NCBI GenBank assembly: GCA_029549985.1
Contig: JAKPIB010000035.1
Coordinates: 29,319 to 93,318, forward strand
Reading direction: 5' to 3'
DNA length: 64,000 bases
Source of the DNA: Bacillota bacterium
Lineage (GTDB): Bacteria > Bacillota > Clostridia > Caldicoprobacterales > DTU083
Of the stretch, positions 5,956-58,114 are shown in pieces; the first letter of the stretch is position 1; each line of letters begins with the position of its first letter. The notes beneath the pieces are model-generated. The model searched no databases, was not told the DNA's origin, and worked only from the letters and a program-made list of their open reading frames with translations. The position numbers were made by a program, and so were the translations under genes.

Positions 5956-5957
5956 TC

Positions 5958-7013
5958 ATGGCTGAAAAACCTGATTTGCTTGATATGACGCTCGAGGAGC
6001 TGGAGCGGATCTTTGTATCATTGGATGAAAAGCCTTTCCGTGCAAGGCAGTTGTTCAAATGGCTTCATAAAGGCACGACAAGCTTTGAACAGATGACAGA
6101 CCTTCCTGCTACATTGATAGAAAAGTTAAACAGCGGCTACAGAATCGAACGCCTGGTCACCCTCGAACGTTTGGCTTCATCAGATAAGCGCACTGTAAAG
6201 TATTTGTATTTATTGAGTGATAATAATATAATAGAATGTGTTTCTATGCAATATCCATATGGCACGACCCTATGTCTTTCGACACAGGTAGGCTGCAGGA
6301 TGGGGTGCAGTTTTTGTGCATCCACTACGGGCGGACTGGTAAGAAATCTGACTGCAGGGGAGATGCTTGCGCAGGTATTGGCGGCAGACGATGATCTTGC
6401 CGAGCACAACAAGCCGAGTATCAACGGCCTTGTGCTCATGGGCTGCGGTGAGCCTCTGGACAACTATGACAATGTGTTGAAATTCATCAAGCTGGTACAC
6501 AACCCTCTTGGCTTGAATATAGGGTATAGAAATATCACCTTGTCTACCTGCGGCTTGGTGCCTAAAATGTATACACTGGCAGATGAAGGCTTGAATATAA
6601 ATTTGGCTGTCTCCTTGCATGCGCCTTATGACAGTATTCGAAGAGAGATAATGAAAATAGCTCATGCTTACAGTGTAGCTGAAGTCATAAGCGCTGCCAG
6701 ATACTATTTTGACAAGACAGGCAGAAGGGTGACCTTTGAATACGCCCTGATCAGCGGTACCAATGACAAACCGGAGCATGCGGAAGAGCTGTGCAGGCTT
6801 CTTCGTGGATTCCCATGCCATGTAAACGTGATACCGCTTAATGAGGTAAAGCACTTAAGCCGCAAAAGGAGCAGCGAGGATAGAATCAAAACGTTTATTT
6901 CGATCCTTCAGTCAAAAGGCATAAATGTAACCAGAAGGCGTGAGATGGGACTGGACATAAACGGTGCTTGTGGTCAGCTAAAAGCAGCATATCTTGAGAA
7001 AGAACGGGGGTAG
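5958..7013 (+). CDS. rlmN: 23S rRNA/tRNA A2503 C2-methyltransferase (radical SAM)
   Basis: ORF 5952..7013. ATG 5958 lies 7 nt after AAGAGGG. CxxxCxxC cluster GCRMGCSFC, and a C-terminal GACGQL motif. Confidence 0.93.
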   Translation: MAEKPDLLDMTLEELERIFVSLDEKPFRARQLFKWLHKGTTSFEQMTDLPATLIEKLNSGYRIERLVTLERLASSDKRTVKYLYLLSDNNIIECVSMQYPYGTTLCLSTQVGCRMGCSFCASTTGGLVRNLTAGEMLAQVLAADDDLAEHNKPSINGLVLMGCGEPLDNYDNVLKFIKLVHNPLGLNIGYRNITLSTCGLVPKMYTLADEGLNINLAVSLHAPYDSIRREIMKIAHAYSVAEVISAARYYFDKTGRRVTFEYALISGTNDKPEHAEELCRLLRGFPCHVNVIPLNEVKHLSRKRSSEDRIKTFISILQSKGINVTRRREMGLDINGACGQLKAAYLEKERG

Positions 7014-21690: not shown

Positions 21691-22680
21691 ATGAGTGTTT
21701 TGCAGGAAATCAGAGAAAGGGCATCAAAGCTGGGGAAGACGATCGTACTGCCGGAAGGTACTGAGCCACGCATAATAAAGGCTGCTTCCATGGCAACACA
21801 GGCCGGCGTAGCCAAAATAATACTGCTGGGTGATCCCCAAGAGATCGAAAGCAAATCAGATGGAGCAGATCTCACGGGTGTTACTATTATAGATCACTTA
21901 AAATCAGATAAAATAGATCATTATGCCAATGAGCTGTATGAGCTGAGAAAGAACAAGGGCATGACTCTGGACAAGGCATATGAGACTCTTAAAGACCCTC
22001 TGTATTTCGGTACTATGATGGTAAAGCAGGACGATGCCGACGGCATGGCGGCCGGTTCGATCAATGCAACGGCAGATGTTCTCAGGCCTGCTCTCCAGAT
22101 CATAAAAACCGCGCCTGGCATAAAGGTTGTATCCAGCGTATTTGTTATAGAGCTGCCTGATAGCAGGTTCGGCAAAAATGGCACTTTAATTTACGGAGAC
22201 TGCGGAGTCAATCCCGACCCGGATGCAGAAGAGCTTGCAGCTATTGCAGTTTCAACTGCTATAACTGCCAAGCAGGTAGCAGGCATGGAGCCTGTAGTGG
22301 CGCTTTTATCATTCTCAACAAAGGGAAGCGCTACACATCCAAGGGTAGATAAGGTCATAAAGGCAACCAAGCTCGCACAGCAAATGGCACCCCAATTCTT
22401 ATTTGACGGGGAGCTTCAGGGAGATGCGGCATTAGTTGAAAGCGTAGGCAAGCTCAAATGTCCTGACAGCCCGGTGGCTGGCAGAGCCAACGTGCTCATC
22501 TTCCCGGATCTGGATTCGGGCAATATCGCATACAAACTGACCCAGCGGTTAGCAGGCGCTCAGGCTGTAGGCCCGATATGCCAGGGACTCGCCAAGCCCG
22601 TCAATGACCTGTCGAGGGGCTGCAGTTCTGAAGATGTAGTGAATGCTGTCGCTATAACCGCTGTTCAGGCTGAAATATAA
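21691..22680 (+). CDS. pta: phosphate acetyltransferase
   Basis: 329 aa PTA_PTB fold (IVLPEG, FPDLDSGNIAYK). Precedes ackA. Confidence 0.95.
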   Translation: MSVLQEIRERASKLGKTIVLPEGTEPRIIKAASMATQAGVAKIILLGDPQEIESKSDGADLTGVTIIDHLKSDKIDHYANELYELRKNKGMTLDKAYETLKDPLYFGTMMVKQDDADGMAAGSINATADVLRPALQIIKTAPGIKVVSSVFVIELPDSRFGKNGTLIYGDCGVNPDPDAEELAAIAVSTAITAKQVAGMEPVVALLSFSTKGSATHPRVDKVIKATKLAQQMAPQFLFDGELQGDAALVESVGKLKCPDSPVAGRANVLIFPDLDSGNIAYKLTQRLAGAQAVGPICQGLAKPVNDLSRGCSSEDVVNAVAITAVQAEI

Positions 22681-22697
22681 ACTAGGAGATGATTTGA

Positions 22698-23903
22698 TTG
22701 AAAATATTGGTAATCAACGCCGGGAGTTCATCACTCAAGTATCAGCTGATCGATATGGACAACGAGAGTGTGTTGGCCAAGGGAAATGCAGAACGGATCG
22801 GCATAGCCAATTCACAGCTGATACATGCGTCATCCGGCAAAGACAAGGTAGTGTTCAAGGCAGAGTTTAAAAACCATGAAGATGCCATCAAAATGGTCAT
22901 TGAAACCCTGACTTCAACAGAGCATGGTGTCATCAGGGATATGAGTGAGATTGGTGCTGTAGGGCACAGGGTAGTGCATGGTGGAGAACGCTTTTCACAG
23001 TCAGTGATCATCGATGATGAGGTAATGAAGGCAATAAAGGCCAATATCGACCTGGCGCCGCTGCACAATCCGGCCAACATCATGGGTATAGAGGCATGCA
23101 GGCGAATTATGCCGCAAACACCCATGGTAGCAGTGTTTGACACTGCATTCCATCAAACGATGCCAAAGGAAGCTTACCTTTATGCTATCCCATATGAGTA
23201 CTATGAAAGATATAAAATCAGGCGTTACGGGTTCCATGGCACATCGCACAAGTATGTTTCTTTGAAAGCAGCCAAGCTGCTTGGCAGGCCTATAGAAGAG
23301 CTCAGGATAGTGACCTGCCATTTGGGCAACGGTTCAAGCATAGCAGCTGTAAAGTATGGTAAATCGATAGATACCAGCATGGGCTTTACCCCCCTGGACG
23401 GGCTTCCGATGGGCACGAGGTCAGGTAGCATAGATCCCGCTATAGTCAGCTTCTTGGCTGATAAGGAAGATTTGACAAGCGAAGAAATCAACGAATGCCT
23501 GAATAAAAGATCAGGTGTTCTGGGTATATCCGGGGTTAGCAGCGACTTCAGGGATCTGGCGGAGGCTGCAGCCAATAATGTCGAGCGAGCCCGGCTGGCA
23601 CTTGATGTGTTCAACTATCAGGTGAAGAAATATATAGGCCAGTATGCCGCTGCGATGGGTGGACTGGATTGTGTAGTATTTACCGCCGGAGTAGGAGAGA
23701 ATACACCCAGAGTACGAAGCGAAGCATGCAAGGGTCTGGAGTTCCTGGGGATAAAGCTCGATCCTGAACGAAATGAGCAGATCCTGGGCCGCGTGAACAT
23801 GGAAGGCATGATATCGACGGATGATTCACCGGTAAAAGTGCTTGTGATCCCGACAAATGAAGAGCTGATGATAGCCAGAGAAACACTGGAGCTGACATGC
23901 TGA
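22698..23903 (+). CDS. ackA: acetate kinase
   Basis: [21 protein letters not shown] and HLGNG motifs. TTG start 8 nt after AGGAGA. Confidence 0.96.
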
Positions 23904-40173: not shown

Positions 40174-41700
40174 GTGCTGGCCAAGGTCAAAAGCACCGGG
40201 CTTTTCGGCATCAGAGGGTACTCAATAGATATAGAGGTCGACATTTCAAACGGCCTGCCAAGCTTTGAAATCGTAGGACTGGCCGATATGGCTGTCAAAG
40301 AATCAAGGGAAAGGGTCCGGTCCGCTATAAAGAACAGCGGATTTGAGTTCCCGGTAAGACGCATAACCGTTAACATGGCTCCTGGCGATACCCGTAAGGA
40401 AGGTTCGGCTTATGACCTTCCAATAGCAGTGGGGATCCTTAAGGCGACCGGCCAGATACCTGACAATGGCTTTGATCCTGTATACCTGGGCGAGCTGTCC
40501 CTGGACGGTTCTATACGTCCCGTCAGTGGTGTGCTGCCCATGCTCCTGTCAGCATCTGACAGTGAGAGCTCCGCTGTCCTGCCTGTAGCAAATGCACCGG
40601 AAGCCAGCCATGTCAAAGGTATGGCCATTTACCCCTTTGAAACACTGGGGGAGCTTGTTGCAGCCTTGAATGGCAAAGCACCGTTGAAAGAATTTAAGCA
40701 AATCGAGGACAATGAGTTTCATGTCGACACTGACCCTGCAGAGGATTTCTTGGATGTAAAGGGACAGGAAAACGCCAAGCGTGCCTTGAAAATTGCAGCA
40801 GCCGGCGGGCACAACATAATCATGATCGGCAGTCCGGGCACTGGTAAGACGATGCTGGCCAGGCGTCTGCCCTCTATCCTTCCTGACCTGACATACTCAG
40901 AAGCTTTGGAGATAACCAATATCTACAGTGCTGCCGGAGCTTTGAACCCGGCTCTGGGGCTTATAAAGCAAAGGCCTTTCAGAGCGCCTCATCATACCAT
41001 TTCCAGCATCGCTCTGGTAGGCGGGGGAAGGATTCCAATGCCCGGCGAGATCAGTCTGGCTCATCATGGTGTCCTCTTTCTCGATGAACTCCCTGAGTAT
41101 AAGAGAGATGTTCTTGAAGTGCTGCGACAGCCACTTGAGGATGGGCAGATCACAGTTTCCAGGGCAAATGGTACGGCGGTTTTTCCAGCCAAGTTCATGC
41201 TGGTAGGAAGCATGAACCCATGCCCCTGCGGATATTTTGGAGATCCCGGCCATGAATGCTCCTGTACACCCGGGCAGATATCCAGATATATGAGCAAGCT
41301 GTCAGGCCCGTTACTGGACAGGTTCGATATCCATATGGAGGTAAGCCCGATCCCCTTTGAAAAACTGACCGGCGATTCCAGGGGCGAGTCATCACAGGAG
41401 ATGAAACAAGATGTCGACAGAGCCCGAAACATCCAGCTCGAACGCTACAAAAGTGAGGGCATTTTCTGCAATTCCCAGCTCAGTTCCAAGCAATTGCCCA
41501 AATACTGCAAGCTGAACGATACACAGCTTTTGATGCTGAAGGAAGCCTTTAAAATGCTGTCTTTGAGCGCCAGGGCTTATGACAGGATACTCAAGGTGGC
41601 ACGGACAATAGCTGATTTGGATGGAGAGGAAAGGATTCTTGACCATCATCTGGCCGAAGCTATACAGTACCGTAGCTTAGACAGGGAGCTCTGGAGCTAG
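40174..41700 (+). CDS. comM: Mg-chelatase-like AAA+ protein YifB/ComM
   Basis: 508 aa. Lon-protease-like N domain, Walker A GSPGTGKTM, LFLDELPE, and a Cys motif CPCGYFGDPGHECSC. Confidence 0.9.
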   Translation: MLAKVKSTGLFGIRGYSIDIEVDISNGLPSFEIVGLADMAVKESRERVRSAIKNSGFEFPVRRITVNMAPGDTRKEGSAYDLPIAVGILKATGQIPDNGFDPVYLGELSLDGSIRPVSGVLPMLLSASDSESSAVLPVANAPEASHVKGMAIYPFETLGELVAALNGKAPLKEFKQIEDNEFHVDTDPAEDFLDVKGQENAKRALKIAAAGGHNIIMIGSPGTGKTMLARRLPSILPDLTYSEALEITNIYSAAGALNPALGLIKQRPFRAPHHTISSIALVGGGRIPMPGEISLAHHGVLFLDELPEYKRDVLEVLRQPLEDGQITVSRANGTAVFPAKFMLVGSMNPCPCGYFGDPGHECSCTPGQISRYMSKLSGPLLDRFDIHMEVSPIPFEKLTGDSRGESSQEMKQDVDRARNIQLERYKSEGIFCNSQLSSKQLPKYCKLNDTQLLMLKEAFKMLSLSARAYDRILKVARTIADLDGEERILDHHLAEAIQYRSLDRELWS

Positions 41701-41893
41701 CTTCAAAAAATTAACTTTATTTGTGTTTATCTATTGTTTTCATTTACAAAATGTACTATTATTATAAATACCAAAAAAGTTGATCGAATCTAGAGATTAA
41801 ACTGGATTTTCGCAATATCCACACTATTCATTTAGAACTCTATCAATTTGTGTCGCATATATTTACTTTACATATACAAAGGAGATATTTAAA

Positions 41894-43924
41894 ATGAGGC
41901 TTTTTAGATCCTTTGATTCCGATGAAAATAAGCCGAAGATTTCGTCAGAACCTGTTTCCAAACCCAAACCCAAACCCAAATATACCTTTCTGGTCGTTGA
42001 CGATTCCAAATTTTCGCGGGGCATTTTGACTGATATATTGAAGAATGAAGGCTATACGATAGTCGGTGAAGCAAATGACGGTTATGAAGCTATTGATATG
42101 GTAAAAGAAAAAAGCCCGTCTTTTGTTTTTATGGATATAACCATGCCAAAAATGGACGGTCTTACAGCTGTCAAGGAGATCCTGAAGATCAATCCAAATA
42201 TCAACATCATCATGTGCTCAGCTCTCAGCCAGAAGAGAGTGATCGTAGAAGCTATCAAAGCCGGTGCCAAGGATTTCGTTATAAAGCCCTATAAGAAAGA
42301 GAATATACTCAATGTAGTCAATGTACACATGGAAGCCGATAAAAAAGGCCAAGTCATACCATTCAGGAGTGAAAATCATATCAAGAAAACCAAAGACAGC
42401 CGGTACGAATCTGAAGCAGAAAGCGACGCTTTATTGTTGGATGATGAGGCTCTGTCCAGAGAGGTTGACCTGATTTTTGACAGCTATGCCAAGGAAAACG
42501 AAAAGCACCAGGGTGAACAGCCCGGACAGCCAAAATTTAAAGTAGTCAAGCCTGAAAAGGAAGAGCTCAAACCTATCAGCGAGTCGAATTCTGATGCCAC
42601 TAAAGCCCGTCCGGGTGAATCGAAGAATGCTGATTCGCTTTTGGACGAGTTCGAACGTTTCCTGCAGACATTCAGTTCATACAGCTCAAGCATCGTAGAC
42701 ACGGACGAAGAAGCTGCACCTGAAAGCACAGATGATTCTGAATTGCTCACAGATGAAGAATATCCGGATCTTGTAATGGCGGACTTAGAAGATATTCCTG
42801 CAAATGACGGATATAAGGGATCATATCTGGATGAATATGCTGATTTTATAGATGAGGAGACAGCGAATGATGAAGCACCTGATCTTATGTCGGATGAGAC
42901 AGACATAGGATCCGGCGATCAGGATGAGTTTAATGCATCTGAGCGATCACCTGCAGGTGAAGCATCTTACACCAATGAGCCTTATATCAATGATACATAT
43001 GCCACTAATGACACAGATGAGACCTTCGAAGATAAGGAAGCCAATCCGGATGATACCGCATTCAGCACAGGGTCATATCAAGAGCTATCAGTAGATGACG
43101 GGCAGTATGGTGAAGCAGCTCCGACCAGGGAAGGACTTTTTACGGAAGATGTAACAGCAGATGAAGAACTTTATACGAACGAGACATGGGCTCAAGCAGA
43201 GCAATATGCTGGCAAGATGGCAACAGGAGAAGAACTGGAAGATGAAAAAGAAGCAAATCCCGCTATCTCAGCAGATGGTGATGTAGCGGATGAAAGCCAG
43301 GAGTTAACTGAGCTTGTTGCCCCAGAGCATGGCGAAGATGGGAAATCCGATGCAGATAAAGATCTGTCCATATACGAGGCAAGTGAAGCAGCTATGGTTG
43401 AAGAGGCTGCCGAAGATCAGCCTGATATGGGTTCAAACAGTATACCTGAAGCGGCAGAGTTGTCTGATTTCGGCCTGCCCAAGAAGATATTGCCGGACAG
43501 GCCTGTACACACATATGCAAGCAGGTTTGGCGGCAACAACCAACTAGTGGAGCTGAATCAGACAAGAGGTATCAAGGTCAGCCGTGTTGCTGCAACAAGG
43601 CTGATAATGAGCAATGATGAAAGCAAAAACGATCCTGATCTGGATCTTGATTTGTTGTACAGCATAGCTTGCGCATATATATCCCCCGAAAGTAAGCCTG
43701 GTAAGGATGAAACAAAATGGAACGGACATACGGTGCACAGGAGCATCAAAAATATTTCCGGTCTTGCCCTCATTAACAGGCAACAGGCCAGGTCGATCTC
43801 AATGCTGGATCTTATTAGAAATGACAGATCGGACAAAAAACATGCAAACGATGAGGAAGTCCTGTTAAAGGCCATAGCAGATCTGGTAAGGAAAAAAAGC
43901 GAACGCGTCTTAAGCAGCGAATAA
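41894..43924 (+). CDS. CheY-type receiver domain protein with long polyacidic low-complexity region and unassigned C-terminal domain
   Basis: 676 aa with RBS AAGGAG 8 nt upstream. Receiver hallmarks DD36-37, D81 (FVFMDITMP), S109 and K131-P. Residues about 150-530 are D/E/T/S-rich. The last 140 aa or so have ordinary composition and no motif I recognise. Confidence 0.85.
   Translation: MRLFRSFDSDENKPKISSEPVSKPKPKPKYTFLVVDDSKFSRGILTDILKNEGYTIVGEANDGYEAIDMVKEKSPSFVFMDITMPKMDGLTAVKEILKINPNINIIMCSALSQKRVIVEAIKAGAKDFVIKPYKKENILNVVNVHMEADKKGQVIPFRSENHIKKTKDSRYESEAESDALLLDDEALSREVDLIFDSYAKENEKHQGEQPGQPKFKVVKPEKEELKPISESNSDATKARPGESKNADSLLDEFERFLQTFSSYSSSIVDTDEEAAPESTDDSELLTDEEYPDLVMADLEDIPANDGYKGSYLDEYADFIDEETANDEAPDLMSDETDIGSGDQDEFNASERSPAGEASYTNEPYINDTYATNDTDETFEDKEANPDDTAFSTGSYQELSVDDGQYGEAAPTREGLFTEDVTADEELYTNETWAQAEQYAGKMATGEELEDEKEANPAISADGDVADESQELTELVAPEHGEDGKSDADKDLSIYEASEAAMVEEAAEDQPDMGSNSIPEAAELSDFGLPKKILPDRPVHTYASRFGGNNQLVELNQTRGIKVSRVAATRLIMSNDESKNDPDLDLDLLYSIACAYISPESKPGKDETKWNGHTVHRSIKNISGLALINRQQARSISMLDLIRNDRSDKKHANDEEVLLKAIADLVRKKSERVLSSE
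41960..41980 (+). repeat. hexanucleotide tandem repeat (AAACCC)x3.5
   Basis: aaacccaaacccaaacccaaa, encoding KPKPKPK just ahead of the receiver domain. Confidence 0.9.
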
Positions 43925-43979: not shown

Positions 43980-44936
43980 ATGAGCAAATTTACCGTGAAC
44001 AAGACCTTGTTTGAGGGGCTGGCACAATATTTTGATGAAAAAAACAGCATATCTCCCTTTGCACTTCAACCGGATAAGAATTTGTCTTCAGAAGAGATAG
44101 ATTATCTAAAGGAGACCGGCATATTGGGCAATGACGGCAGCATTGTCCGGTCTTTGCATGATATGCTGACAGTGGTAGCCAAGCCAGCCGCCGCAGTGAA
44201 CCTGCTTCTGACTGGCGGAGCCGGCTTGTACAAGCATAGCTTATACTATGACGCCACATACACCAAGTGCATATATGCTACCTATATGACTGATGATATA
44301 GTAGTTACCGACGAAGAGAGCCCGGACAGCTTAATGGATACCATAGCCAAGTTTATTGGAAAAAGCAACTTGAAAAGTCTTGATTTCAACCACGACTTCG
44401 ATATCGAAGAAGCGCTTGTCATAGCAGCGATAATAGACCTTGAAAGAAAGCTTTGCCTAAGAGCATTGATAGATGAAATCCCCTACGACCAAAACCTGTA
44501 CGGCTACAATAAGATTTGGAGGACTATAAACAGCACGAGTTCAAGCATTCAATGGTTTGTACATATCATCAATCAAGTGATAGGAGAGTATACAAACCTA
44601 AGCTACAAGCAAGTGCAGGACGCACTGGAAAGGCTTGTGCCGTTAGGGCTGTTGAGCCAGAAGAACGGCCTGTATCAGTTATCGGATGAACTGGTTTTCC
44701 TGGCCAATAGGATGCTCATCAATGACAACATAGTTTCAGTTTCAGCATTGAAGCAATGGGGCAATGGGATCATATCCTCCGGCTTTACAAGTGTCCAGGC
44801 CGGTATCCATGATATATTGTATCTTGACTACAATGGTGACACCATAAAGTTCAAAACCATGTCCAGCGATGAGCTGTTGGAAAGCATTGACTTTTTCATT
44901 AACAATAAGGAGTATTTCAGCAAATTGACAGCATAA
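43980..44936 (+). CDS. hypothetical protein, no recognisable family
   Basis: 318 aa with RBS AGGAGG 8 nt upstream. Soluble-looking. Possible winged-helix-like segment (YKQVQDALERLVPLGLLSQKNGLYQLSDE). Only 25 nt upstream of pilB. Confidence 0.75.
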   Translation: MSKFTVNKTLFEGLAQYFDEKNSISPFALQPDKNLSSEEIDYLKETGILGNDGSIVRSLHDMLTVVAKPAAAVNLLLTGGAGLYKHSLYYDATYTKCIYATYMTDDIVVTDEESPDSLMDTIAKFIGKSNLKSLDFNHDFDIEEALVIAAIIDLERKLCLRALIDEIPYDQNLYGYNKIWRTINSTSSSIQWFVHIINQVIGEYTNLSYKQVQDALERLVPLGLLSQKNGLYQLSDELVFLANRMLINDNIVSVSALKQWGNGIISSGFTSVQAGIHDILYLDYNGDTIKFKTMSSDELLESIDFFINNKEYFSKLTA

Positions 44937-44961: not shown

Positions 44962-46650
44962 GTGTGGGATACGTCTAGAAAAAGAAAAAAGCTGGGTGAT
45001 TTTCTGCTGGAATCCGGTATCATAGACGAGGTACAGCTGGCAAAGGCCTTGCATATTCAAAAGGAACAGGGCGGACGGCTCGGTACGATCCTGGTGAAAA
45101 ACAACTTCGTAGATGAGCGGCAACTATTAGAGGTATTGGAGTTCCGGCTGGGCATTCCCTTTATAGATCTTCACAATATAGAAATCAGCCCTGATATGCA
45201 GAAGCTGGTTCCATATCAGATTGCTGAAAAATATAAGGTAGTACCGGTCAAAATCGAGAATGGCATGCTGTATGTTGCAATGGAGGACCCACTTGATTTT
45301 ATCGCTATCGAGGACCTCAAACTCGTGGCAAAAATGGAGATCGCTCCTGTATTATCCTATGTTGACTCTATCACTTCAGCGATCAACCAGCTGTACGGCA
45401 GCGAAGAGGCAGACAAGGCCATAAAGGAATTCCAGCAGGAATCCGGGATACAGTCTGCTGAAAGCACGGCAAGTGAGCAGCAGCTTGAGGTTGACAGCGC
45501 ACCAATTGTCAGGCTGGTCCATACTATGATTGAGCAAGCGGTGCTGGAAGGAACCAGCGATATCCACATAGAGCCAATGGAGAACGAGGTGAGGGTCCGT
45601 TACAGGATCGACGGCAAGCTGCAGCTCTTTCAAACCATACCTAAGAATGCTCATTCTGCAGTGATTACTCGTATAAAGATAATGTCGGGTCTGAACATTG
45701 CAGAGAAAAGGATCCCACAGGACGGCAGGTGTGATCTGACGGTCAGGGACAAGCAGCTCAACCTTCGTGTGTCTACACTGCCTACAGTCCATGGAGAAAA
45801 AGTTGTAATCAGGATCCTGGACAAGTCCAACTTCCTGATCCCAAAGGAAAAGCTGGGCTTTACCAAGGAGAACCTTGAGAAATTCGACAGACTGCTTATG
45901 AACCCTCATGGGATAATCCTTATAACAGGCCCGACCGGAAGCGGCAAATCAACGACCCTATATACTATGCTGAGCGAGCTCAACAAGATATCAGAGAACA
46001 TAGTTACAGTAGAGGACCCGGTCGAATACCTGATACCGGGCCTGAATCAGGTGCAGGTCAATGTCAAGGCAGGCCTTACCTTTGCAAGCGCGCTCAGATC
46101 ATTCTTAAGGCAAGACCCTGATATTATCATGCTGGGAGAGATCAGGGATTCGGAGACCGCAGATATAGCTATGAGGGCTGCCATAACCGGCCACCTTGTA
46201 TTGAGCACCTTGCATACCAATGATGCTGTCAGCTCCATATCAAGGCTGATCGATATGGGCATAGAGCCGTTCATGGTTGCCGTATCACTTGTGGGTGTCA
46301 TATCCCAAAGGCTGGTGAGAAAGCTCTGCCCGAGATGTGCAGTGGATTACAAACCGCCAGCCCATGAACTCAAACTGCTGGGAGTGGACAAGGAGGACCA
46401 GGTGTACAAAAAGCCGGTGGGCTGCAGCTACTGCAATAACACAGGCTATAAGGGCAGATTGGCTGTCCACGAGGTCCTGGTCATAAACAATGGCCACAGG
46501 GAAATGATAGCCAAAAATGCCTCAGTAAGCGATCTTACTGAGTATTCAATTAAGACAGGAATGACCACGCTAAAGCAGGAATGCATCAAACTACTTGAAA
46601 ACGGCACTACTTCTGTCAGTGAAGTATTGAGTGTAGCATACTCACAATAA
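44962..46650 (+). CDS. pilB: type IV pilus assembly ATPase PilB (GspE family)
   Basis: N-terminal MshEN/GSPII_E_N domain. Walker A GPTGSGKST, Asp and His boxes, and a tetracysteine CPRC...CSYC. Confidence 0.93.
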   Translation: MWDTSRKRKKLGDFLLESGIIDEVQLAKALHIQKEQGGRLGTILVKNNFVDERQLLEVLEFRLGIPFIDLHNIEISPDMQKLVPYQIAEKYKVVPVKIENGMLYVAMEDPLDFIAIEDLKLVAKMEIAPVLSYVDSITSAINQLYGSEEADKAIKEFQQESGIQSAESTASEQQLEVDSAPIVRLVHTMIEQAVLEGTSDIHIEPMENEVRVRYRIDGKLQLFQTIPKNAHSAVITRIKIMSGLNIAEKRIPQDGRCDLTVRDKQLNLRVSTLPTVHGEKVVIRILDKSNFLIPKEKLGFTKENLEKFDRLLMNPHGIILITGPTGSGKSTTLYTMLSELNKISENIVTVEDPVEYLIPGLNQVQVNVKAGLTFASALRSFLRQDPDIIMLGEIRDSETADIAMRAAITGHLVLSTLHTNDAVSSISRLIDMGIEPFMVAVSLVGVISQRLVRKLCPRCAVDYKPPAHELKLLGVDKEDQVYKKPVGCSYCNNTGYKGRLAVHEVLVINNGHREMIAKNASVSDLTEYSIKTGMTTLKQECIKLLENGTTSVSEVLSVAYSQ

Positions 46651-46670: not shown

Positions 46671-47723
46671 ATGAATCTCTACGAAATACTGAAGACTGCA
46701 TCGGATCTAAAAGCTTCTGACATACACATAACTGTTGGTGTGCCATGTACATACCGGATACACGGCAAGCTCGTACACATAGATGACAAGATCCTCCTGC
46801 CTGATGATACAAAGACGCTCGTCAGGGAGCTGTGCAATGAAGCCCAGTTCGGCCTGCTGACTAAAAAGGGAGAAGTGGACTTTTCATTTTCGATGCCCGG
46901 ACTTCAGCGATTCAGGGTAAATGCCTACAAGCAGCGCAACAGCTATAGCGCTGCCTTGAGGCTTGTAAACTCGAAGATCCCGCCTTTTGAGGAGCTCGGC
47001 CTGCCTTCAGTGGTAAGAGAGCTGACTCACCTCAGCAGGGGGATAATCCTGGTGACAGGGCCTACTGGCAGCGGGAAGTCGACTACCCTGGCCAGCATGA
47101 TAGATTACATCAACAACAACTGGGACAAGCATATTATAACCATCGAGGATCCGATCGAGTATCTGCACAGGCATAAAAAGAGCATCGTTAACCAAAGAGA
47201 GGTCGGCAGTGACACGAAGAGCTTTGCCAATGCCTTGCGCGCAGCCTTGCGCCAGGACCCTGACATCATACTGATAGGCGAGATGAGGGACCTGGAGACC
47301 ATAGCCACAGCGCTTACCGCGGCCGAGACCGGCCACCTTGTGCTTAGCACGCTTCATACGGTGGGTGCTACCAAAACGATCGACAGGATCATTGACGCCT
47401 TTCCGCCCCACCAGCAGCAGCAGGTAAGGGTACAGCTCTCTATGCTGCTGCAAGGCGTTATATCGCAGCAGCTTATTACTAGAAGAGATGGAAAAGGCCG
47501 TGTTGCTGCTGTTGAAACGATGGTTGTCAATGCCGCAATAAGAAATATCATACGCGAGGCAAAGATACACCAGATCAACAATGTCATCCAAACAAGCGCT
47601 AGCAAGGGGATGAAGCTTATGGATGATGCTATTATCGAGCTGTACAATAAGCAGCTGATTTCAAGAGAAGATGCCCTTATGCACTGCGTAGATCCGGAAT
47701 ATATGAGAAAAAGCCTGTTCTAA
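46671..47723 (+). CDS. pilT: type IV pilus retraction ATPase PilT
   Basis: 350 aa. SDIHI motif, Walker A GPTGSGKST, GHLVLSTLHT, and AIRNIIREAK (PilT-specific AIRNLIRE motif). Confidence 0.93.
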   Translation: MNLYEILKTASDLKASDIHITVGVPCTYRIHGKLVHIDDKILLPDDTKTLVRELCNEAQFGLLTKKGEVDFSFSMPGLQRFRVNAYKQRNSYSAALRLVNSKIPPFEELGLPSVVRELTHLSRGIILVTGPTGSGKSTTLASMIDYINNNWDKHIITIEDPIEYLHRHKKSIVNQREVGSDTKSFANALRAALRQDPDIILIGEMRDLETIATALTAAETGHLVLSTLHTVGATKTIDRIIDAFPPHQQQQVRVQLSMLLQGVISQQLITRRDGKGRVAAVETMVVNAAIRNIIREAKIHQINNVIQTSASKGMKLMDDAIIELYNKQLISREDALMHCVDPEYMRKSLF

Positions 47724-47734
47724 TATGAAAGAGG

Positions 47735-48952
47735 GTGGTTATCATTCCTAAGTACCAGTATAAAGCTGTGAATATGTCAGGCAGGGTCATAGAAGGAGTG
47801 TATGAAGCTATAAATAAAGACGCTGTCGTTGACATGATAAGACAGAAAAACTTCTTTCAGCTGGAAATAAAAGAGCTGCCGAGCCAGAAGGACATAAATG
47901 ATCTATCTTTCCTATCGAAGATCGGCAGTAAGGATATTTCACTGTTCTGTAAGCAGTTTGCCGCCATCCTTAGGGCAGGCGTACCTTTGGTACAAGGGCT
48001 CAATATGTTGAGCCAGCAGACAGAGAATAAAAAGCTGAAGAGTATACTTTCAAATATATATGAGGTCGTTCAGAAGGGCAACAGCCTATCCGATGCCATG
48101 CGACTGCATGAGAAAAAGCTGCCTGCCATGCTGATAAACATGATAGAGGCCGGCGAGGTCAGCGGTACTTTGGATGAGACCCTTGAAACGATGGCTGTTC
48201 ATTATGAAAAGGACTATAAGATGAAGGCAAAAGTAAAGGGTGCGATGACATACCCGATCGTTGTCCTTGTTATAGCAATAGCTGTCGTAATATTGATGCT
48301 GACCGCAGTTGTGCCTATGTTCATAGGCCTGTTTGAAAACAGCGGAGCACCGCTGCCCGGTCCGACAAAGCTGCTGATAGGGATGAGCGAAGGCCTCAAG
48401 GCCAACGGACTTGTATACCTGCTCTTTATAGTGATCGCTGGTATTCTTATAAAGATCTATCTTTCAACGGAAAACGGAAAGGCAGTATTCCACAGACTCC
48501 TGTTACAGGCGCCGCTCGTCGGCAAGCTTCAGGTCAAGGTATTCACAGCAAGGCTCGCAAGGACCCTTGGTACCTTGATGAGGACCGGTGTAGACATAAC
48601 CAAATCCATAAACCTGGCATCCAGGACGATATCAAATGTCATCGTCCAAAAAGGATTGTTTGAGGTAGAAGCCCAGGTCAATCAGGGAAAAAGCCTGTAC
48701 GAACCGATCAAGGCCCTTAAGATCTTTCCGGTGATGCTGGAAAACATGGTCATGCTGGGTGAAGAATCCGGTACCCTGGAAGATATGCTTATAAAGACGG
48801 CTGATTTCTATGAGGAAGAAGTGGACAGGGAGATACAAAAGCTGACCTCGCTTATGGAGCCTGCGATAATCGTCGTCCTAGGTGGGATGATCGCCTTCAT
48901 TGTACTTTCCATAATGCTGCCGATGTTCGAAATGATGAAATATGTAGCATAA
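47735..48952 (+). CDS. pilC: type IV pilus platform protein PilC (GspF family)
   Basis: 405 aa. Two T2SF repeats and three TM segments. The start codon (GTG 47735) is uncertain. Confidence 0.92.
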   Translation: MVIIPKYQYKAVNMSGRVIEGVYEAINKDAVVDMIRQKNFFQLEIKELPSQKDINDLSFLSKIGSKDISLFCKQFAAILRAGVPLVQGLNMLSQQTENKKLKSILSNIYEVVQKGNSLSDAMRLHEKKLPAMLINMIEAGEVSGTLDETLETMAVHYEKDYKMKAKVKGAMTYPIVVLVIAIAVVILMLTAVVPMFIGLFENSGAPLPGPTKLLIGMSEGLKANGLVYLLFIVIAGILIKIYLSTENGKAVFHRLLLQAPLVGKLQVKVFTARLARTLGTLMRTGVDITKSINLASRTISNVIVQKGLFEVEAQVNQGKSLYEPIKALKIFPVMLENMVMLGEESGTLEDMLIKTADFYEEEVDREIQKLTSLMEPAIIVVLGGMIAFIVLSIMLPMFEMMKYVA

Positions 48953-49052
48953 ATTATAAAATATTTTGCATGCCTATGCAGGATTTAGCTTCATGAAGTC
49001 GAATATAAAAAATAATATAATTTTACAATATTTTATAGAAGGAGTGTTAAAA

Positions 49053-49430
49053 GTGATAAATAGAAAGAAAAAGAATCAAAAAGGATTTACCTTAGTCGAA
49101 CTCATCGTAGTAATCGCCATATTAGGTATTCTTGCAGCTATCGCTATACCGGCATTCGGAGGATTCACGAAATCAGCCAATATCAGAGCTATCGAATCAG
49201 AGCACAGGATGCTGATCGGCGCCATCCAGATGTGGCAAGCCAACCAGGACAACGTAAGTACATTCCCACCGAACCTGGAAGCGTTAGATGAATATGTAGA
49301 CGGTGGTATTGCTAAAATCGAAGCAAGGATGCAAGCTGATGGTGAAAACAAGGCTCATGATATTACTCCACAAGGAAAACTGATATCCAAGTATGATGAT
49401 GCAAATGTCTGGATCTATCCTAGCCACTAA
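49053..49430 (+). CDS. pilA: major type IV pilin
   Basis: ORF 48966..49430. GTG 49053 follows GAAGGAG. Class III signal MINRKKKNQKG|FTLVELIVVIAILGILAAIAIP with Glu at +5. The mature protein is about 114 aa and has no Cys. Confidence 0.88.
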   Translation: MINRKKKNQKGFTLVELIVVIAILGILAAIAIPAFGGFTKSANIRAIESEHRMLIGAIQMWQANQDNVSTFPPNLEALDEYVDGGIAKIEARMQADGENKAHDITPQGKLISKYDDANVWIYPSH

Positions 49431-49448
49431 AATATTCTAAAAAATATA

Positions 49449-49478
49449 ATAGAGCGAGGAAACTCGCTCTATTCTTTT
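49449..49478 (+). terminator. strong intrinsic terminator after pilA
   Basis: ATAGAGCGAG-gaaa-CTCGCTCTAT (10 bp, GNRA-type loop) followed by TCTTTT. Confidence 0.8.
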
Positions 49479-49506: not shown

Positions 49507-50763
49507 ATGGGCAAAAATAAAGTCAGTACATTGTTGATAGCAATCATCTGCATAACTCCATTAGTATTCATACCGTTTACTTTATATTTTAAGCAGCTAG
49601 GTATCATCATAGTTGATTTTTTCATGCTGCCCAAGCTGCTGTTTGTGGCTTTATGCGCTTTTATAATACTGATAATGCTGGCATATTGCAAAGATAGCCC
49701 AGAGGCTCCAAAGGAAAAGCTCACAGAATATCTGATGGGGCTCTATTTGCTCCTCGTAGCCGTATCGACAGTACTTTCGATAGATCCGTACCTGTCATTG
49801 GTAGGAGCCATGTTTTACAACGAGGGACTGTTGACGATCCTTTTGTATGCTTTTTTATTTATGGCAGCAAAGCGCTGTTATTCACATGCAGACCGGCATT
49901 CAGCGATGATGACCGCCTTCTCTTCCTTGATAGGCCTATATGGCATGCTGCAATTCCTGGGGTATGATCTGACTATAACTGAAATGACCGGAAAAGTATA
50001 TGCCACTTTCAGAAACCCGAATTACTTTGGAGCTTATCTGGTGTTGATGCTACCTGTGAGTATATTTGCCTACCTGAGGACTTCTAGAAAGATAGTCCTG
50101 CCTGCTGTAGCCATCTTGTATTTCTGTTTACTGTGTACCAATACCAGGGGTTCATGGTTAGGCTTTTTGGTCTCTGTTCTTGTTTTCCTGTATTATTCCA
50201 TTAGACTCAAGTACCAGACCAGAAGACTGTTAACGGTTTTTGCTGTTCTTGCAATGGTTACGGCAGTCTATATCCTGATAGTCAACAGACAGCTGATAGA
50301 ACGCTTTGCTTCAATATTCATAGAGTTCAAAAATGTTGTCACTCTGTCTGAAAACTATGAATCAGGCGGAAGCAAAAGGATATTTATATGGAAATGCGCT
50401 TTGCAGATCATCAGGGAACACCCATTCTTCGGGACCGGACCCGAAACCTTCAGCAAAGTGATATATAGTAGATTCTCACTCCATTTCTTCAAGGCCCATA
50501 ATGAGTACCTCAATATCGCGCAGTCATCAGGGATCCCGGCCCTTATAGTCTATGCTGCCTGGCTGGCTGATGTTATACGCAATGGCATTAAGGGTATCAG
50601 AAAAAACATATACATATTGCCCTATTTGGCAAGCGTGACAGGATATGCCGTCCAGGCCTTTTTCAATGTCAGTATAGTTGCAGTAGCGTATATATTTTGG
50701 ATATTCAGTGGTATTCTTGTAAGCACGGGCACAGACATTAATTCAAAATATAGTAATTATTGA
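49507..50763 (+). CDS. Wzy_C / O-antigen-ligase-family polytopic membrane protein (candidate pilin glycosyltransferase)
   Basis: 418 aa with about 10-12 TM segments. Family-typical blocks NPNYFGAYL, TNTRGSWLGF, and HPFFGTGPETF...KAHNEYLNIAQSSGIPAL. Confidence 0.8.
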   Translation: MGKNKVSTLLIAIICITPLVFIPFTLYFKQLGIIIVDFFMLPKLLFVALCAFIILIMLAYCKDSPEAPKEKLTEYLMGLYLLLVAVSTVLSIDPYLSLVGAMFYNEGLLTILLYAFLFMAAKRCYSHADRHSAMMTAFSSLIGLYGMLQFLGYDLTITEMTGKVYATFRNPNYFGAYLVLMLPVSIFAYLRTSRKIVLPAVAILYFCLLCTNTRGSWLGFLVSVLVFLYYSIRLKYQTRRLLTVFAVLAMVTAVYILIVNRQLIERFASIFIEFKNVVTLSENYESGGSKRIFIWKCALQIIREHPFFGTGPETFSKVIYSRFSLHFFKAHNEYLNIAQSSGIPALIVYAAWLADVIRNGIKGIRKNIYILPYLASVTGYAVQAFFNVSIVAVAYIFWIFSGILVSTGTDINSKYSNY

Positions 50764-50902: not shown

Positions 50903-51418
50903 GTGAGGTTTTTATTGTTTTATATGTATAGGTGTTGTAAAATCATATCGAAAAGCAAAAATGGCTTTACTTTGCTGGAGTTGTTGATCGTTATTACTGT
51001 TATCGGTATACTTGCATCACTGGCCATACCTAATATAATCAAAATCGCGGATGATTACAGGCTTAATGAAGCGGCCAAGGAGATTGCCAGAGAGATAATA
51101 AACACCCAGCAGTTAGCGATGTACTATGGAATAGATATGCAATTTGAGATAGACATCTATAATAATCAGTATTCGGTCAGGACCAGGGGTACCCCTTCAA
51201 AGCTGTTTAAAAGAGGACAATTGGATAGAAGTATGACTATTGCCACCAATCTCTACAATCCTGGTTACAGTGGGAGCTATAAAGGGATACGTACCCTATA
51301 CTATTCGCCGAGCGGGATGCCGTCCAGAACCGGAACGATTTGGTTATATAGCGAAACAGGCGGCTATAAAAGGATTACTATAGCTGTCGGTACCGGAAGG
51401 GTGAAAATATGGGACTGA
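50903..51418 (+). CDS. minor pilin, GspH/FimT-like
   Basis: Prepilin signal ..SKSKNG|FTLLELLIVITVIGILASLAIP. Start could be GTG 50903, TTG 50915 or ATG 50924. C terminus is GspH-like (TIWLYSE..ITIAVGTGRV). Confidence 0.8.
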   Translation: MRFLLFYMYRCCKIISKSKNGFTLLELLIVITVIGILASLAIPNIIKIADDYRLNEAAKEIAREIINTQQLAMYYGIDMQFEIDIYNNQYSVRTRGTPSKLFKRGQLDRSMTIATNLYNPGYSGSYKGIRTLYYSPSGMPSRTGTIWLYSETGGYKRITIAVGTGRVKIWD

Positions 51419-52233
51419 AACGCTTAAGTGTTCTAAAGGATGACAAGGCCGGGTCTATTCTGCTGGAAGTAGTAATATCACTGATTTTGATTTCCTTGCT
51501 GGCTTTAACATTCATGTCCATGTACGTTTTCGCCTCGCGGGTGAATGCCAGATCGCAGAGAGTAACAGATACCACATATGCTGCCCAGAATATGTTGGAA
51601 GAGCTGTACAGCCTGAGCGTGAACCAGTCCTTCGATGAATCACTCAATGAACTCAGAAGTATAATCTCCTCATGCCAAGTTACCCAGGAATCGCCAGATC
51701 TTTACAAGGTCACCGGGGAATATGGCAAATACGGTGTAGAGATAACCTTGCAAAAAATCAGAGACAACATGTACAACTCCATAGTCAAGGCTTATACTCT
51801 GTCTTCGAGTCTCCATCAGGAGACGACGATGCAAAACCTCTTCATCTGGAATACAGAGGCCGATAGCGGCGAAGATGAAAATGAAAACGGCGGAGACACA
51901 GGGGGCGGAGATACAGGTGATGAAGAGGATGAGGATGAAGGAGACGAGGATGATAACGGACCCGAACAAGAATTAAAAATAGTTGACATTAAACGGATAG
52001 ATACCTATGAACAAGGCAATAAAGTCAGGTTCAATATAAGAATATACCTGAGCAACGGTGCTGAGCATGATCATAACAACAAGCAGGAGTTCGAGTTCAA
52101 GAAAAACCAGAACAAAACTGAATACACACAAGGCACTATACAACTTGGCTCAGGCTATATAGATTACGAAATAAAGATAATAGTGAAAAATGGTTCGATA
52201 GATCTTGAATTAGTTCATCAGACTTCGCGCTAA
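51409..52233 (+). CDS. minor pilin-like protein with polyacidic linker and extra C-terminal domain
   Basis: Signal MGLKRLSVLKDDKAG|SILLEVVISLILISLLALTF with Glu at +5. Acidic tract EADSGEDENENGGDTGGGDTGDEEDEDEGDEDDNGPEQ, followed by about 90 aa of beta-rich sequence. Confidence 0.7.
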   Translation: MGLKRLSVLKDDKAGSILLEVVISLILISLLALTFMSMYVFASRVNARSQRVTDTTYAAQNMLEELYSLSVNQSFDESLNELRSIISSCQVTQESPDLYKVTGEYGKYGVEITLQKIRDNMYNSIVKAYTLSSSLHQETTMQNLFIWNTEADSGEDENENGGDTGGGDTGDEEDEDEGDEDDNGPEQELKIVDIKRIDTYEQGNKVRFNIRIYLSNGAEHDHNNKQEFEFKKNQNKTEYTQGTIQLGSGYIDYEIKIIVKNGSIDLELVHQTSR

Positions 52234-56516: not shown

Positions 56517-57356
56517 ATGGATATTTCGCCCTTGACGAAGATAGTAGGGGTCATTGGACACCCGATAGGACATAGCCTGTCTCCCAGGCTTCACAACAAC
56601 TTTTACAAAAAGCTGAAGCTTGATATAGCATACCTGGCTTTTGACGTCAAGCCGGCCGAGCTGGAAAAGGCTGTACGAGGGATGGCTGCTCTCGGTTTCA
56701 TAGGTTTCAATGTGACAATACCCCACAAGGAATCCATGCTGAACCTGGTTGATGAAGTGGAACCAGGCGCACAGCTGGTAGGAGCGATCAATACCGTCAA
56801 GATAGCTGACGGAAAGCTGATAGGCCACAACACCGATGGCCAGGGCTTTATGGAGTCCCTTAAGCGAAATGATGTAAACATACGGGACAGACATATAGTA
56901 GTCCTTGGAGCCGGAGGCGCTGCAAGGGCTGTAAGTATTGCTGTAGCAGCTGATGGTCCGAAAAGGATGACTATCGTCAACAGGACCTTTGAGCGGGGAA
57001 GGCATCTGGCATTTTCAATAAACGATAAAATAGGCAAAAGGCTTGCGAAGGCAGCATCAGAAATACCCCGTGATGCCGATATTATAATAAATACCACTTC
57101 CCTTGGCATGTGGCCTGATGTCCATGCCAGTCCTATTACCGGATACAGCTTAAGGGCAGATACTGTAGTATGTGATATAGTGTACAACCCTAGAAAGACC
57201 TTGATGCTGAAGCAGGCTGAAGCCATGGGCTGCAAAACTGTAGACGGCATTGGTATGCTGATCGGCCAGGCTTTGCGCTCAATAGAGATATGGACGGATA
57301 CAAAGCTTGACAGCGGAGCATGGAATACGATGCAGGAGGAAATAGAGCATATATGA
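56517..57356 (+). CDS. aroE: shikimate dehydrogenase
   Basis: GVIGHPIGHSLSPRLHN, NVTIPHK, NTDG and GAGGAARA motifs. Confidence 0.93.
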   Translation: MDISPLTKIVGVIGHPIGHSLSPRLHNNFYKKLKLDIAYLAFDVKPAELEKAVRGMAALGFIGFNVTIPHKESMLNLVDEVEPGAQLVGAINTVKIADGKLIGHNTDGQGFMESLKRNDVNIRDRHIVVLGAGGAARAVSIAVAADGPKRMTIVNRTFERGRHLAFSINDKIGKRLAKAASEIPRDADIIINTTSLGMWPDVHASPITGYSLRADTVVCDIVYNPRKTLMLKQAEAMGCKTVDGIGMLIGQALRSIEIWTDTKLDSGAWNTMQEEIEHI

Positions 57357-58114
57357 TAGGAGCCTTGGTATTTTTGCTGGGATTGTTCATTGGAAGCTTT
57401 TTCAATGTATGCATCTACCGTATCCCATATGAACGATCCATAGTATTCCCGCCGTCCCACTGCCCATCCTGCAGTCACAGACTTGGAACCTTGGATCTTA
57501 TCCCAGTTTTCAGTTATTTGCTTTTAAAGGGCAAATGCCGTTATTGCGGCAGCAGGATCTCGGTACAGTACCCGCTGATAGAGCTCTTGACCGGGGGAGT
57601 TTTTCTTTACTTATATTTGCATTTTGGCCTGACCTGGCAGCTGTTGACAAGCATAGTTCTGGTATCCCTGCTATTGATCATGACAGTCATTGATATCAAG
57701 CATATGATAATACCAGATGAGCTTGTTGCTTTCGGTATTGTTTCAGCGTTCATATTCCAGATAGCCGGGATTTCCCAGATCGGATACTTAAGTGCCATTT
57801 ACGGAACCCTGCTTGGCGGCGGAGTGTTTTTGCTCATAGCCCTGTTTTCAATGCTGGTGCTGAAGAAAGAAGGTATGGGCGGCGGTGATATCAAGCTTAT
57901 GGCTATGATAGGGGCGCTGACAGGGTGGAAAGCGACTCTGCTGTCAATGGTGCTATCGGTCTATTTAGGAGGCTTGTTGGGTGGTATTTTACTACTTTTA
58001 AAGGTAAAAAGGCGAGGCGATTACATACCCTATGGGCCATTTATAGCTATGGCAGCGGTGATATCCCTTTTATGGGGAGATAATATCATAAGCTGGTGGC
58101 TGGCCTTATTCTAG
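57353..58114 (+). CDS. pilD: prepilin peptidase / N-methyltransferase (A24 family)
   Basis: ORF 57320..58114. ATG 57353 overlaps the aroE TGA. N-terminal CPSC...CRYC motif, polytopic, catalytic-Asp motif GGGDIKL. Confidence 0.92.
   Translation: MIGALVFLLGLFIGSFFNVCIYRIPYERSIVFPPSHCPSCSHRLGTLDLIPVFSYLLLKGKCRYCGSRISVQYPLIELLTGGVFLYLYLHFGLTWQLLTSIVLVSLLLIMTVIDIKHMIIPDELVAFGIVSAFIFQIAGISQIGYLSAIYGTLLGGGVFLLIALFSMLVLKKEGMGGGDIKLMAMIGALTGWKATLLSMVLSVYLGGLLGGILLLLKVKRRGDYIPYGPFIAMAAVISLLWGDNIISWWLALF

Follow-up and report, generated by a model that had tools for sequence, protein, structure and literature searches.

What does a receiver protein do as the first gene product of a type IV pilus operon when it carries a long acidic linker and a tail of no characterised family? 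This question is raised by a stretch of 64,000 nucleotides from a Bacillota bacterium of the class Clostridia (assembly GCA_029549985.1, contig JAKPIB010000035.1, positions 29,319 to 93,318), here called the window. The gene concerned (41894-43924, + strand; 676 aa, ATG start) is termed REC-X, as its product consists of a receiver, an acidic linker and a conserved C-terminal tail. It is followed by a gene for a 318-aa protein (43980-44936, +), termed the EspG-fold partner on the basis of an AlphaFold2 (AF2) model and Foldseek, and then by pilB. A first-pass annotation, made from the window sequence alone, regarded REC-X as a candidate for an undescribed pilus regulatory or localisation module. 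This proposal is supported by strict synteny with pilB and by a tail that lacks any characterised match; a pilus-regulatory function of REC-X is what we infer from gene context. It is probable in our opinion that REC-X and the 318-aa protein form a pilus-associated signalling module. The most informative feature of the locus, missed by the first-pass annotation, is the predicted EspG fold of the neighbour.

REC-X and its neighbour occur together in front of pilB

An alignment of the EspG-like family (the 318-aa protein and its relatives) was scanned over one genome per species, 185,579 species in total, and ORFs of the retrieved loci were scored with the window proteins and with two family profiles. 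The scan yielded 18 loci, all from Clostridia or from Bacillota metagenome-assembled genomes; named hosts are Lachnoclostridium, Anaerocolumna, Herbinix and Lachnospiraceae. The module is thus restricted to a small, Lachnospiraceae-like clade of Clostridia, nearly all of them uncultured. In every locus with enough upstream DNA (15 of 15), genes follow in the same order: REC-X (a single ORF for receiver and tail), then the EspG-like gene, pilB, pilT, pilC and a pilin gene. In the remaining three loci the contig ends just 5' of the EspG-like gene or within it. Two divergent metagenome members (contigs L024 and L025) display the same succession of REC-X, EspG-like gene and pilB. Counted over all reference-genome loci with upstream sequence, this succession holds in 16 of 16. 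Co-occurrence of the two genes upstream of pilB, which the first-pass annotation had named as the test of its proposal, is therefore the rule.

Two observations help to define what the pair is linked to. Contig L025 (3585-9326) contains REC-X, the EspG-like gene, pilB and pilC without an adjacent pilT, which indicates that the module tracks pilB, not pilT. Further, genes located 5' of the pair vary between lineages. A YifB/ComM-like gene is found there in the window clade only, while asparaginase, recG or HTH genes take this place elsewhere. The pair thus travels with pilus genes and not with its upstream neighbours. In one distant locus (L018), an extra 216-aa ORF containing a receiver (5562-6212) lies immediately 5' of REC-X.

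Proteins related to REC-X were also retrieved by a word-indexed search. Their full-length identity to REC-X ranges from 23 to 56%, apart from an identical metagenomic protein (P0001). The same search returned one 52%-identical protein, a populous group of 643-646-aa proteins (37% full-length identity) and a few distant proteins. One clade, that of the 643-645-aa proteins (P0016 type), was encountered on numerous metagenome contigs and on a 2.16-Mb contig of an NCBI genome.

Components of the locus differ in the degree of their conservation. Across 12 loci, identity to the window protein amounts to 66-94% for the PilB core, 63-97% for PilT, 52-87% for PilC, 47-93% for the receiver, 37-86% for the EspG-like protein and 6-54% for the tail.

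The neighbouring gene encodes a protein with predicted EspG fold

The 318-aa protein belongs to no Pfam family. Its AF2 model is of high quality (pLDDT 87.4, pTM 0.81), and when it was compared with PDB structures by Foldseek, the top 18 matches were all EspG1, EspG3 or EspG5 (E 3e-10 to 5e-7, probability 1.0), the next match having E >0.01. The model consists of two similar halves, each formed by a four-stranded sheet flanked by helices. This agrees with EspG structures as published, in which a quasi two-fold arrangement comprises a central antiparallel sheet and two bundles of helices (bioRxiv 10.1101/250803). At the sequence level no link to EspG was detected: EspG is absent from the Pfam matches listed for 16 members at E up to 1 (25 of 31 families, the rest being single-member), and the family profile matches no PDB EspG sequence at E up to 10. 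The neighbour is for this reason described as a protein with the predicted fold of EspG, a type VII secretion chaperone, and not as a member of the EspG family. Low similarity is common among EspGs themselves, which share only 13-23% identity (bioRxiv 10.1101/250803).

Apart from the overall fold, the two have in common that they are cytoplasmic and accessory to an envelope machine driven by an ATPase. On the contrary, the 318-aa protein is about 40 residues longer, contains a winged-helix-like insert and is highly conserved. EspG is encoded in ESX loci, whereas the 318-aa gene belongs to a type IV pilus operon at each locus, and PE/PPE substrates are lacking there; no type VII secretion genes are present among the scanned window ORFs.

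The EspG-like family comprises 28 clusters of exclusively single-domain proteins, 303-326 aa in length. The protein is acidic (pI 4.4-5.3, net charge -10 to -26 among 16 members). An alignment of 16 sequences with identity down to 39% contains 53 invariant columns. The number of invariant polar residues is unusual, and their pattern resembles a ligand or catalytic site more than a generic chaperone surface; they include T78-G-G80, Y84, H86, D153, E155, R156, R161, D165, E166, N172 and N177; further invariant residues are W180, R181, N184-S-T186, Q191, W192, Q273, G275, H277 and D278.

Residues ~190-236 weakly resemble a winged helix. If this segment bound DNA under the control of phosphorylated REC-X, the two proteins would act as a split transcriptional regulator of the pil operon. 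The position of the pair at the 5' end of the operon would suit such a role, as would the weak matches to Sso10a (E 0.0045), to HTH_45 (5 of 16 members, best E 0.0041) and, in Foldseek, to CRP/FNR proteins (E 0.01-0.1). All winged-helix matches are however far below family cut-offs, and the whole-protein fold match is EspG, seven orders of magnitude ahead of the next match. Moreover, the protein is acidic and the segment itself is neutral to slightly negative in each of the 16 members (net charge 0 to -4), so that DNA binding by the 318-aa protein is unlikely. We regard a split regulator as very improbable. The quasi-symmetry of the model also brought CheC/CheX-type phosphatases into consideration; none was found among the top 50 fold matches, and the D/SxxxExxN motif was not found by eye.

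The fold offers another explanation. EspG proteins chaperone helical substrates in secretion (bioRxiv 10.1101/250803), and the neighbour might likewise chaperone or target a component of the pilus (pilins, PilB) or REC-X; in that case REC-X would be either a CheY-like phosphate sink or an unrelated signalling protein that shares the operon by chance. This would be in line with better conservation of the EspG-like gene compared with the REC-X tail (37-86% versus 6-54% identity). Yet the two genes are never found apart in loci with sequence on both sides, and their families are similarly small: 33 clusters at 50% identity for the tail, 28 clusters at 90% identity for the EspG-like protein. In addition, the conserved tail and the VIPF motif of REC-X (see below) make a dedicated partner more plausible than a freely acting sink. 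A pure chaperone with an uncoupled REC-X thus seems rather improbable to us.

The receiver is most similar to CheY

The only Pfam domain of REC-X is Response_reg (PF00072; E 5.5e-30, 104.2 bits against a cut-off of 30.2), which covers residues 33-142 (41990-42319, +). Receiver hallmarks are located exactly where the first-pass annotation had placed them: D36-D37, D81 within FVFMDITMP, S109 and K131-P132. Among six divergent relatives D36, D37, D81, K131 and P132 are invariant; S109 is replaced by threonine in most relatives, and the aromatic switch position is F128 in the window protein and tyrosine in most others. With every phospho-acceptor residue intact, the receiver is predicted to be phosphorylatable. 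It belongs to the CheY subfamily. CheY accounts for the eight best PDB matches, led by Thermotoga maritima CheY (1TMY, E 8e-36, whole domain aligned), and the best NCBIfam models are CheY and CheB. REC-X is nevertheless distinct from stand-alone CheY proteins, since it has 676 aa versus ~120 aa and scores 116 bits with CheY_Halo (cut-off 200) and 64 bits with E. coli-type CheY (cut-off 189).

The end of the receiver is marked by the KPYKKEN motif (residues 131-137). The segment K131-P-Y-K-K-E-N-I138 at the start of helix 5 is invariant in the six-sequence alignment and its variants recur across the wider family, whereas the counterpart in T. maritima CheY is KPFQPSRV. This difference points to KPYKKENI as a putative family-specific binding face.

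CheY-subfamily receivers are known to control pili. PilG/PilH and the cyanobacterial PixG/PilG-type proteins pass a CheA-type signal to pilus extension and retraction motors. REC-X shares with PilG/PilH only the CheY-like receiver: these proteins are single-domain or PATAN-REC and are encoded in che-like clusters, whereas REC-X has 676 aa with tether and tail and is encoded with pilB. No che, chp or methyl-accepting chemotaxis protein (MCP) gene was detected among the scanned window ORFs, so the cluster context of PilG/PilH is missing here.

According to the first-pass annotation, the window encodes neither a histidine kinase nor CheA; in agreement, none was identified among 39 window ORFs scanned against Pfam. 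This set consists of all other non-nested + strand ORFs of at least 200 aa and two of the three non-nested - strand ORFs, besides a partial ORF at the window start and five ORFs near 29-37 kb that lie outside it, among which SMC, FtsY, Ffh and TrmD are assigned positionally, by synteny with L001. Since the receiver is closest to CheY, its phosphodonor would most likely be a CheA-type kinase. The window also contains adjacent pta and ackA genes (21691-23903, +), a source of acetyl phosphate and thereby a possible kinase-independent phosphodonor for an orphan receiver.

The linker is conserved in charge only

The receiver is followed by a polyacidic, compositionally disordered linker (residues about 151-533, ~380 aa; the part after the VIPF motif, residues about 158-533, corresponds to 42365-43492, +). 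Glutamate constitutes 16% and aspartate 13% of its residues (D+E 28%), which gives a net charge of about -80. The long acidic low-complexity tract noted by the first-pass annotation was thus confirmed by composition. It is the strongest acidic outlier in the window: per 200 aa, D+E peaks at 0.33 with a net charge of -0.29 per residue, while the runner-up ORF has 0.23 and -0.07. A simple-sequence DNA artefact was rejected as its origin, as Tandem Repeats Finder found zero repeats and all four D/E codons are in mixed use. The first-pass annotation further described an internal repeat, YTNE...KEANP. The pair of segments does exist (residues 359-387 and 426-455); its repetitive nature is marginal, being matched by 16 of 500 composition-matched shuffles. 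At the DNA level the repetition does not exceed 15-nt matches, and relatives lack the pair.

All full-length family members consist of a CheY-like receiver, a variable acidic linker and a tail of ~145 aa. Linker sequences cannot be aligned and their length varies from 153 to 502 aa, but they are always acidic (D+E 21-37%, net charge -19 to -109). In some proteins (P0090, P0138, P0141, P0144) they are built of lineage-specific tandem repeats. A linker that is always acidic and otherwise free to evolve would represent a clean natural case of a selected "charge-only" tether. At its beginning, 15-20 residues after the receiver, a short [VIL][IV][PS]F motif occurs at the same place in 15 of 26 family members. 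In the window protein it reads VIPF (residues 154-157; 42353-42364, +) and follows the KPYKKEN motif at a distance of 17-20 residues, as revealed by a motif scan of the family.

The tail has no characterised relatives and may need a partner to fold

The conserved C-terminal region of REC-X (residues 534-676; 43493-43921, +) ends in a helix with the pattern L..AI..LV..K..R.L. The first-pass annotation was unable to place it in any family, and the same holds after profile searches: the last 143 aa (from P534, PDRPVHTY) have no Pfam, NCBIfam or PDB sequence match. A known domain was rejected on the grounds that Pfam at E up to 1 (32 members), an NCBIfam scan of the window tail and a PDB profile search gave nothing meaningful. 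A structure-based comparison, which the first-pass annotation had called for, led to the same result, as a Foldseek-type fold search with a low-confidence model returned zero matches. When 1.84 billion representative proteins were searched with the tail profile, only 33 clusters were found, and the match was always located at the extreme C-terminus. Four motifs are conserved in the tail: [YF]xYLWxNRF, AY[LM]xxxNRLQ, ITMxDIL and the terminal helix LxxAIxxLVxxKxxRxL. Acidic and basic residues are nearly balanced (net charge +3 to +5).

The first-pass annotation referred to the tail as a C-terminal domain. An autonomous globular domain is probably not the case. The AF2 model, built from a 32-sequence alignment, has pLDDT 65.5 and pTM 0.21 and displays five separate helices, of which only the last is confident. 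Because the tail does not fold alone in the model, we suppose that it comprises several conserved motifs that form helices and probably acquire their fold in contact with a partner.

Comparison with RomR and with polar organisers

That this architecture is unprecedented among pilus regulators, as the first-pass annotation had suggested, is too strong a claim. RomR of Myxococcus xanthus and Bdellovibrio consists of a receiver, an unstructured linker whose length and composition are not conserved, and a C-terminal region that is helical, conserved and of no known homology (PMC3441718). Its output part targets the protein within the cell and its receiver couples to a chemosensory system in the control of type IV pilus and gliding motility (PMC3441718). 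REC-X shares this three-part organisation, and RomR is its closest analogue in architecture and logic.

Several differences are apparent. The RomR linker is rich in proline and its C-terminus in glutamate, whereas the REC-X linker is D/E-rich (4.8% proline) and the tail has about as many acidic as basic residues. RomR works with RomX, MglA, MglB and MglC; none of these was seen in the REC-X pil locus, where the EspG-fold partner is present instead. RomR is not encoded at the head of pilB, whereas REC-X is, in a Gram-positive, Clostridium-type host. Homology to the RomR tail was not detected, in that the REC-X tail profile matched only the 33 clusters with the YLW/NRLQ/LV..K..R.L motif set; RomR was not compared directly. 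Altogether, the REC-X module resembles RomR or PilG in its presumed control logic, with unrelated output parts. What is new are the tail family and the fold of the partner, whereas a pilus regulator of the receiver-plus-disordered-linker type is already known.

The parallel suggests an alternative in which REC-X is a polar or landmark scaffold, similar to RomR or to FimV/HubP. Tail and linker would localise REC-X and the pilus machines, and the receiver would modulate this localisation rather than the PilB motor. In RomR, which is laid out in the same way, linker and C-terminus determine pole targeting (PMC3441718). In agreement with a scaffold, linker length in the REC-X family is highly variable and the linker is sometimes tandemly repeated.

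FimV and HubP are polar organisers in which very long, highly acidic low-complexity regions are typical, and they are tied to pilus regulation via PilG and FimL. They share only this acidic character with REC-X, however. FimV/HubP proteins are membrane-anchored and possess LysM and the FimV C-terminal motif, whereas REC-X has none of these features and instead carries a receiver of its own. Maximum hydropathy of REC-X over 19 residues is 1.17, which indicates no transmembrane segment, and neither LysM nor the FimV C-terminal motif was found in Pfam and NCBIfam searches; no other anchoring domain is present. Membrane anchoring was on this account rejected; the terminal helix is moderately amphipathic (hydrophobic moment 0.4-0.5), which neither supports nor excludes membrane targeting. 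Genes for MglA, MglB or RomX-like proteins are missing from the scanned locus, and the tight, exclusive linkage to pilB fits a motor-proximal role at least as well. A scaffold overlaps with a PilB-coupled module and is compatible with it; as the principal role of REC-X we consider it unlikely.

A possible link between a phosphorelay and PilB

Our preferred explanation is that REC-X and the 318-aa protein together make up an accessory module of the type IV pilus machinery, which couples a CheA-type phosphorelay to PilB; the chances of this being correct we estimate as about even. D81 would be phosphorylated by a kinase encoded elsewhere, most likely of the CheA type. The tail would be held by the EspG-fold partner in the way EspG grips the helical PPE partner of PE-PPE substrates, and the resulting complex would dock on the cytoplasmic pilus apparatus, most likely on PilB. 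The acidic linker would serve as a long, extended, non-sticky tether, either allowing the receiver to move back and forth between kinase and motor or maintaining a high receiver concentration close to the motor. Depending on whether the receiver is phosphorylated, the activity or placement of pilus extension would then be switched, with the KPYKKENI face and perhaps the nearby VIPF motif as likely contacts for readout. This particular chain from tail through EspG-fold protein to PilB is put forward tentatively, as somewhat less than evenly likely.

Two observations from other genomes fit a receiver-to-PilB logic. Four 844-aa proteins from Syntrophales metagenomes (P0100-P0103) have a receiver fused directly to a full PilB (MshEN and T2SSE), a hint of the Rosetta-stone type that receivers can act on PilB. 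In locus L023 (10001-11335, P0094; also P0092) a second family combines a CheY-like receiver and an acidic linker with an unrelated C-terminal region (motif NFxSSxMCNWSEE). This gene is the last of a pilM-pilN-pilO / SLH / VWA cluster, and an MCP gene lies in its vicinity. Receivers on acidic tethers thus recur independently in pilus loci.

Several points weigh against the PilB-coupled module. Gene neighbourhood, to begin with, is association and not mechanism. A cognate kinase was identified neither in the scanned part of the window nor within 10 kb at other loci. Similarity of the neighbour to EspG exists at the level of fold only, with TM scores of 0.43-0.60 and an rmsd of 7-10 A. The EspG-like family is also far more conserved than true EspGs, including invariant His, Asp, Glu and Arg residues, and these could mean ligand binding or catalysis instead of chaperoning. 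The YLWxNRF motif, otherwise near-invariant, is lost in the window protein and its two nearest clades, where the tail may work differently. Finally, the co-evolutionary support for the module is weak. Once the shared PilB/PilT/PilC signal is removed, distances of the tail still correlate with those of the EspG-like protein (partial correlation 0.51; controls: receiver/EspG-like 0.23, receiver/tail 0.24), which is in favour of the module, but this mirror-tree signal comes from 13 related taxa and amounts to no more than a hint.

To our knowledge, little has been described about post-transcriptional control of type IV pili in Gram-positive bacteria beyond cyclic di-GMP (c-di-GMP). In the literature that was searched, no link from CheY to pili is described for Clostridia. 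Searches on EspG and pili, response regulators at clostridial pilB, Lachnospiraceae pili and EspG-like folds retrieved no description of the module. REC-X and its neighbour therefore offer a concrete candidate, with a phospho-switch whose site (D81) can be mutated, a defined partner gene and a defined target neighbourhood (pilB). The predicted fold of the partner would extend the EspG fold beyond actinobacterial ESX systems. If the PilB-coupled module is real, this fold would not be a speciality of mycobacterial type VII secretion but would connect client helices more generally with ATPases of secretion or assembly, and clostridial pili would be under chemosensory control by parts unrelated to PilG/PilH, FrzS and RomR. 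That a CheY switch on a polyanionic leash, anchored to PilB via an EspG-fold adaptor, represents an unrecognised class of type IV pilus accessory complexes in Gram-positive bacteria is conceivable, though doubtful at present.

Organisation of the operon and of the remaining pil genes

The operon is preceded by an AT-rich spacer of 193 nt, in which GC content decreases to 0.36 at a promoter-like site TTTTCA-17-TATTAT (41737-41765, +); the site is a consensus match only, and its role as a promoter is putative. A putative ribosome-binding site, AAGGAGA (41879-41885, +), can be read ~8 nt before the ATG at 41894. Gaps of 55 nt between REC-X and the 318-aa gene and of 25 nt between the latter and pilB were exact in the first-pass annotation. 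Downstream follow pilB (44962-46650, +), which encodes the extension ATPase with an MshEN N-terminal domain (T2SSE E 2.7e-137, MshEN E 7e-20), pilT (46671-47723, +) for the 350-aa retraction ATPase (T2SSE E 1e-48), pilC (47735-48952, +) for the platform protein (T2SSF E 3e-61) and pilA (48966-49430, +) for the candidate major pilin (N_methyl E 2e-11). Directly 3' of pilA lies a strong bidirectional, terminator-like hairpin with an 11 bp stem (49448-49473). On the + strand no convincing terminator-like site was detected from 41894 up to this hairpin. Co-transcription of REC-X with the pil genes, as proposed in the first-pass annotation, fits the short gaps, the lack of a convincing terminator before 49448 and the promoter-like site upstream. 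No Rfam family reaches its gathering score anywhere in the window, and a riboswitch or other RNA element 5' of REC-X, as known for C. difficile pilA1, was for that reason rejected.

Directly 5' of REC-X, a YifB/ComM-like ATPase of the Mg-chelatase family is encoded (40174-41700, +), which is syntenic in the window clade only (L001, L002, L005, L007). On the 3' side, the pil locus continues with a gene for a Wzy_C-type membrane protein, four pilin-like genes, pilM, pilN, a gene in pilO position, aroE and pilD. The 418-aa Wzy_C/O-antigen-ligase-type protein (49507-50763, +) is encoded right after the pilin gene and hairpin, likewise in L001, and is a candidate enzyme for the glycosylation of pilin. 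Between the pilM-pilN-pilO genes and pilD (57320-58114, +), which encodes the prepilin peptidase, a gene for shikimate dehydrogenase, aroE (56517-57356, +), is inserted; its overlap with pilD is 37 nt. Finally, a 274-aa ORF in minor-pilin position (51409-52233, +), without Pfam match, has a G/D/E-rich acidic tract of its own, GEDENENGGDTGGGDTGDEEDEDEGDEDDNGPE, and ranks third in the window for acidity.

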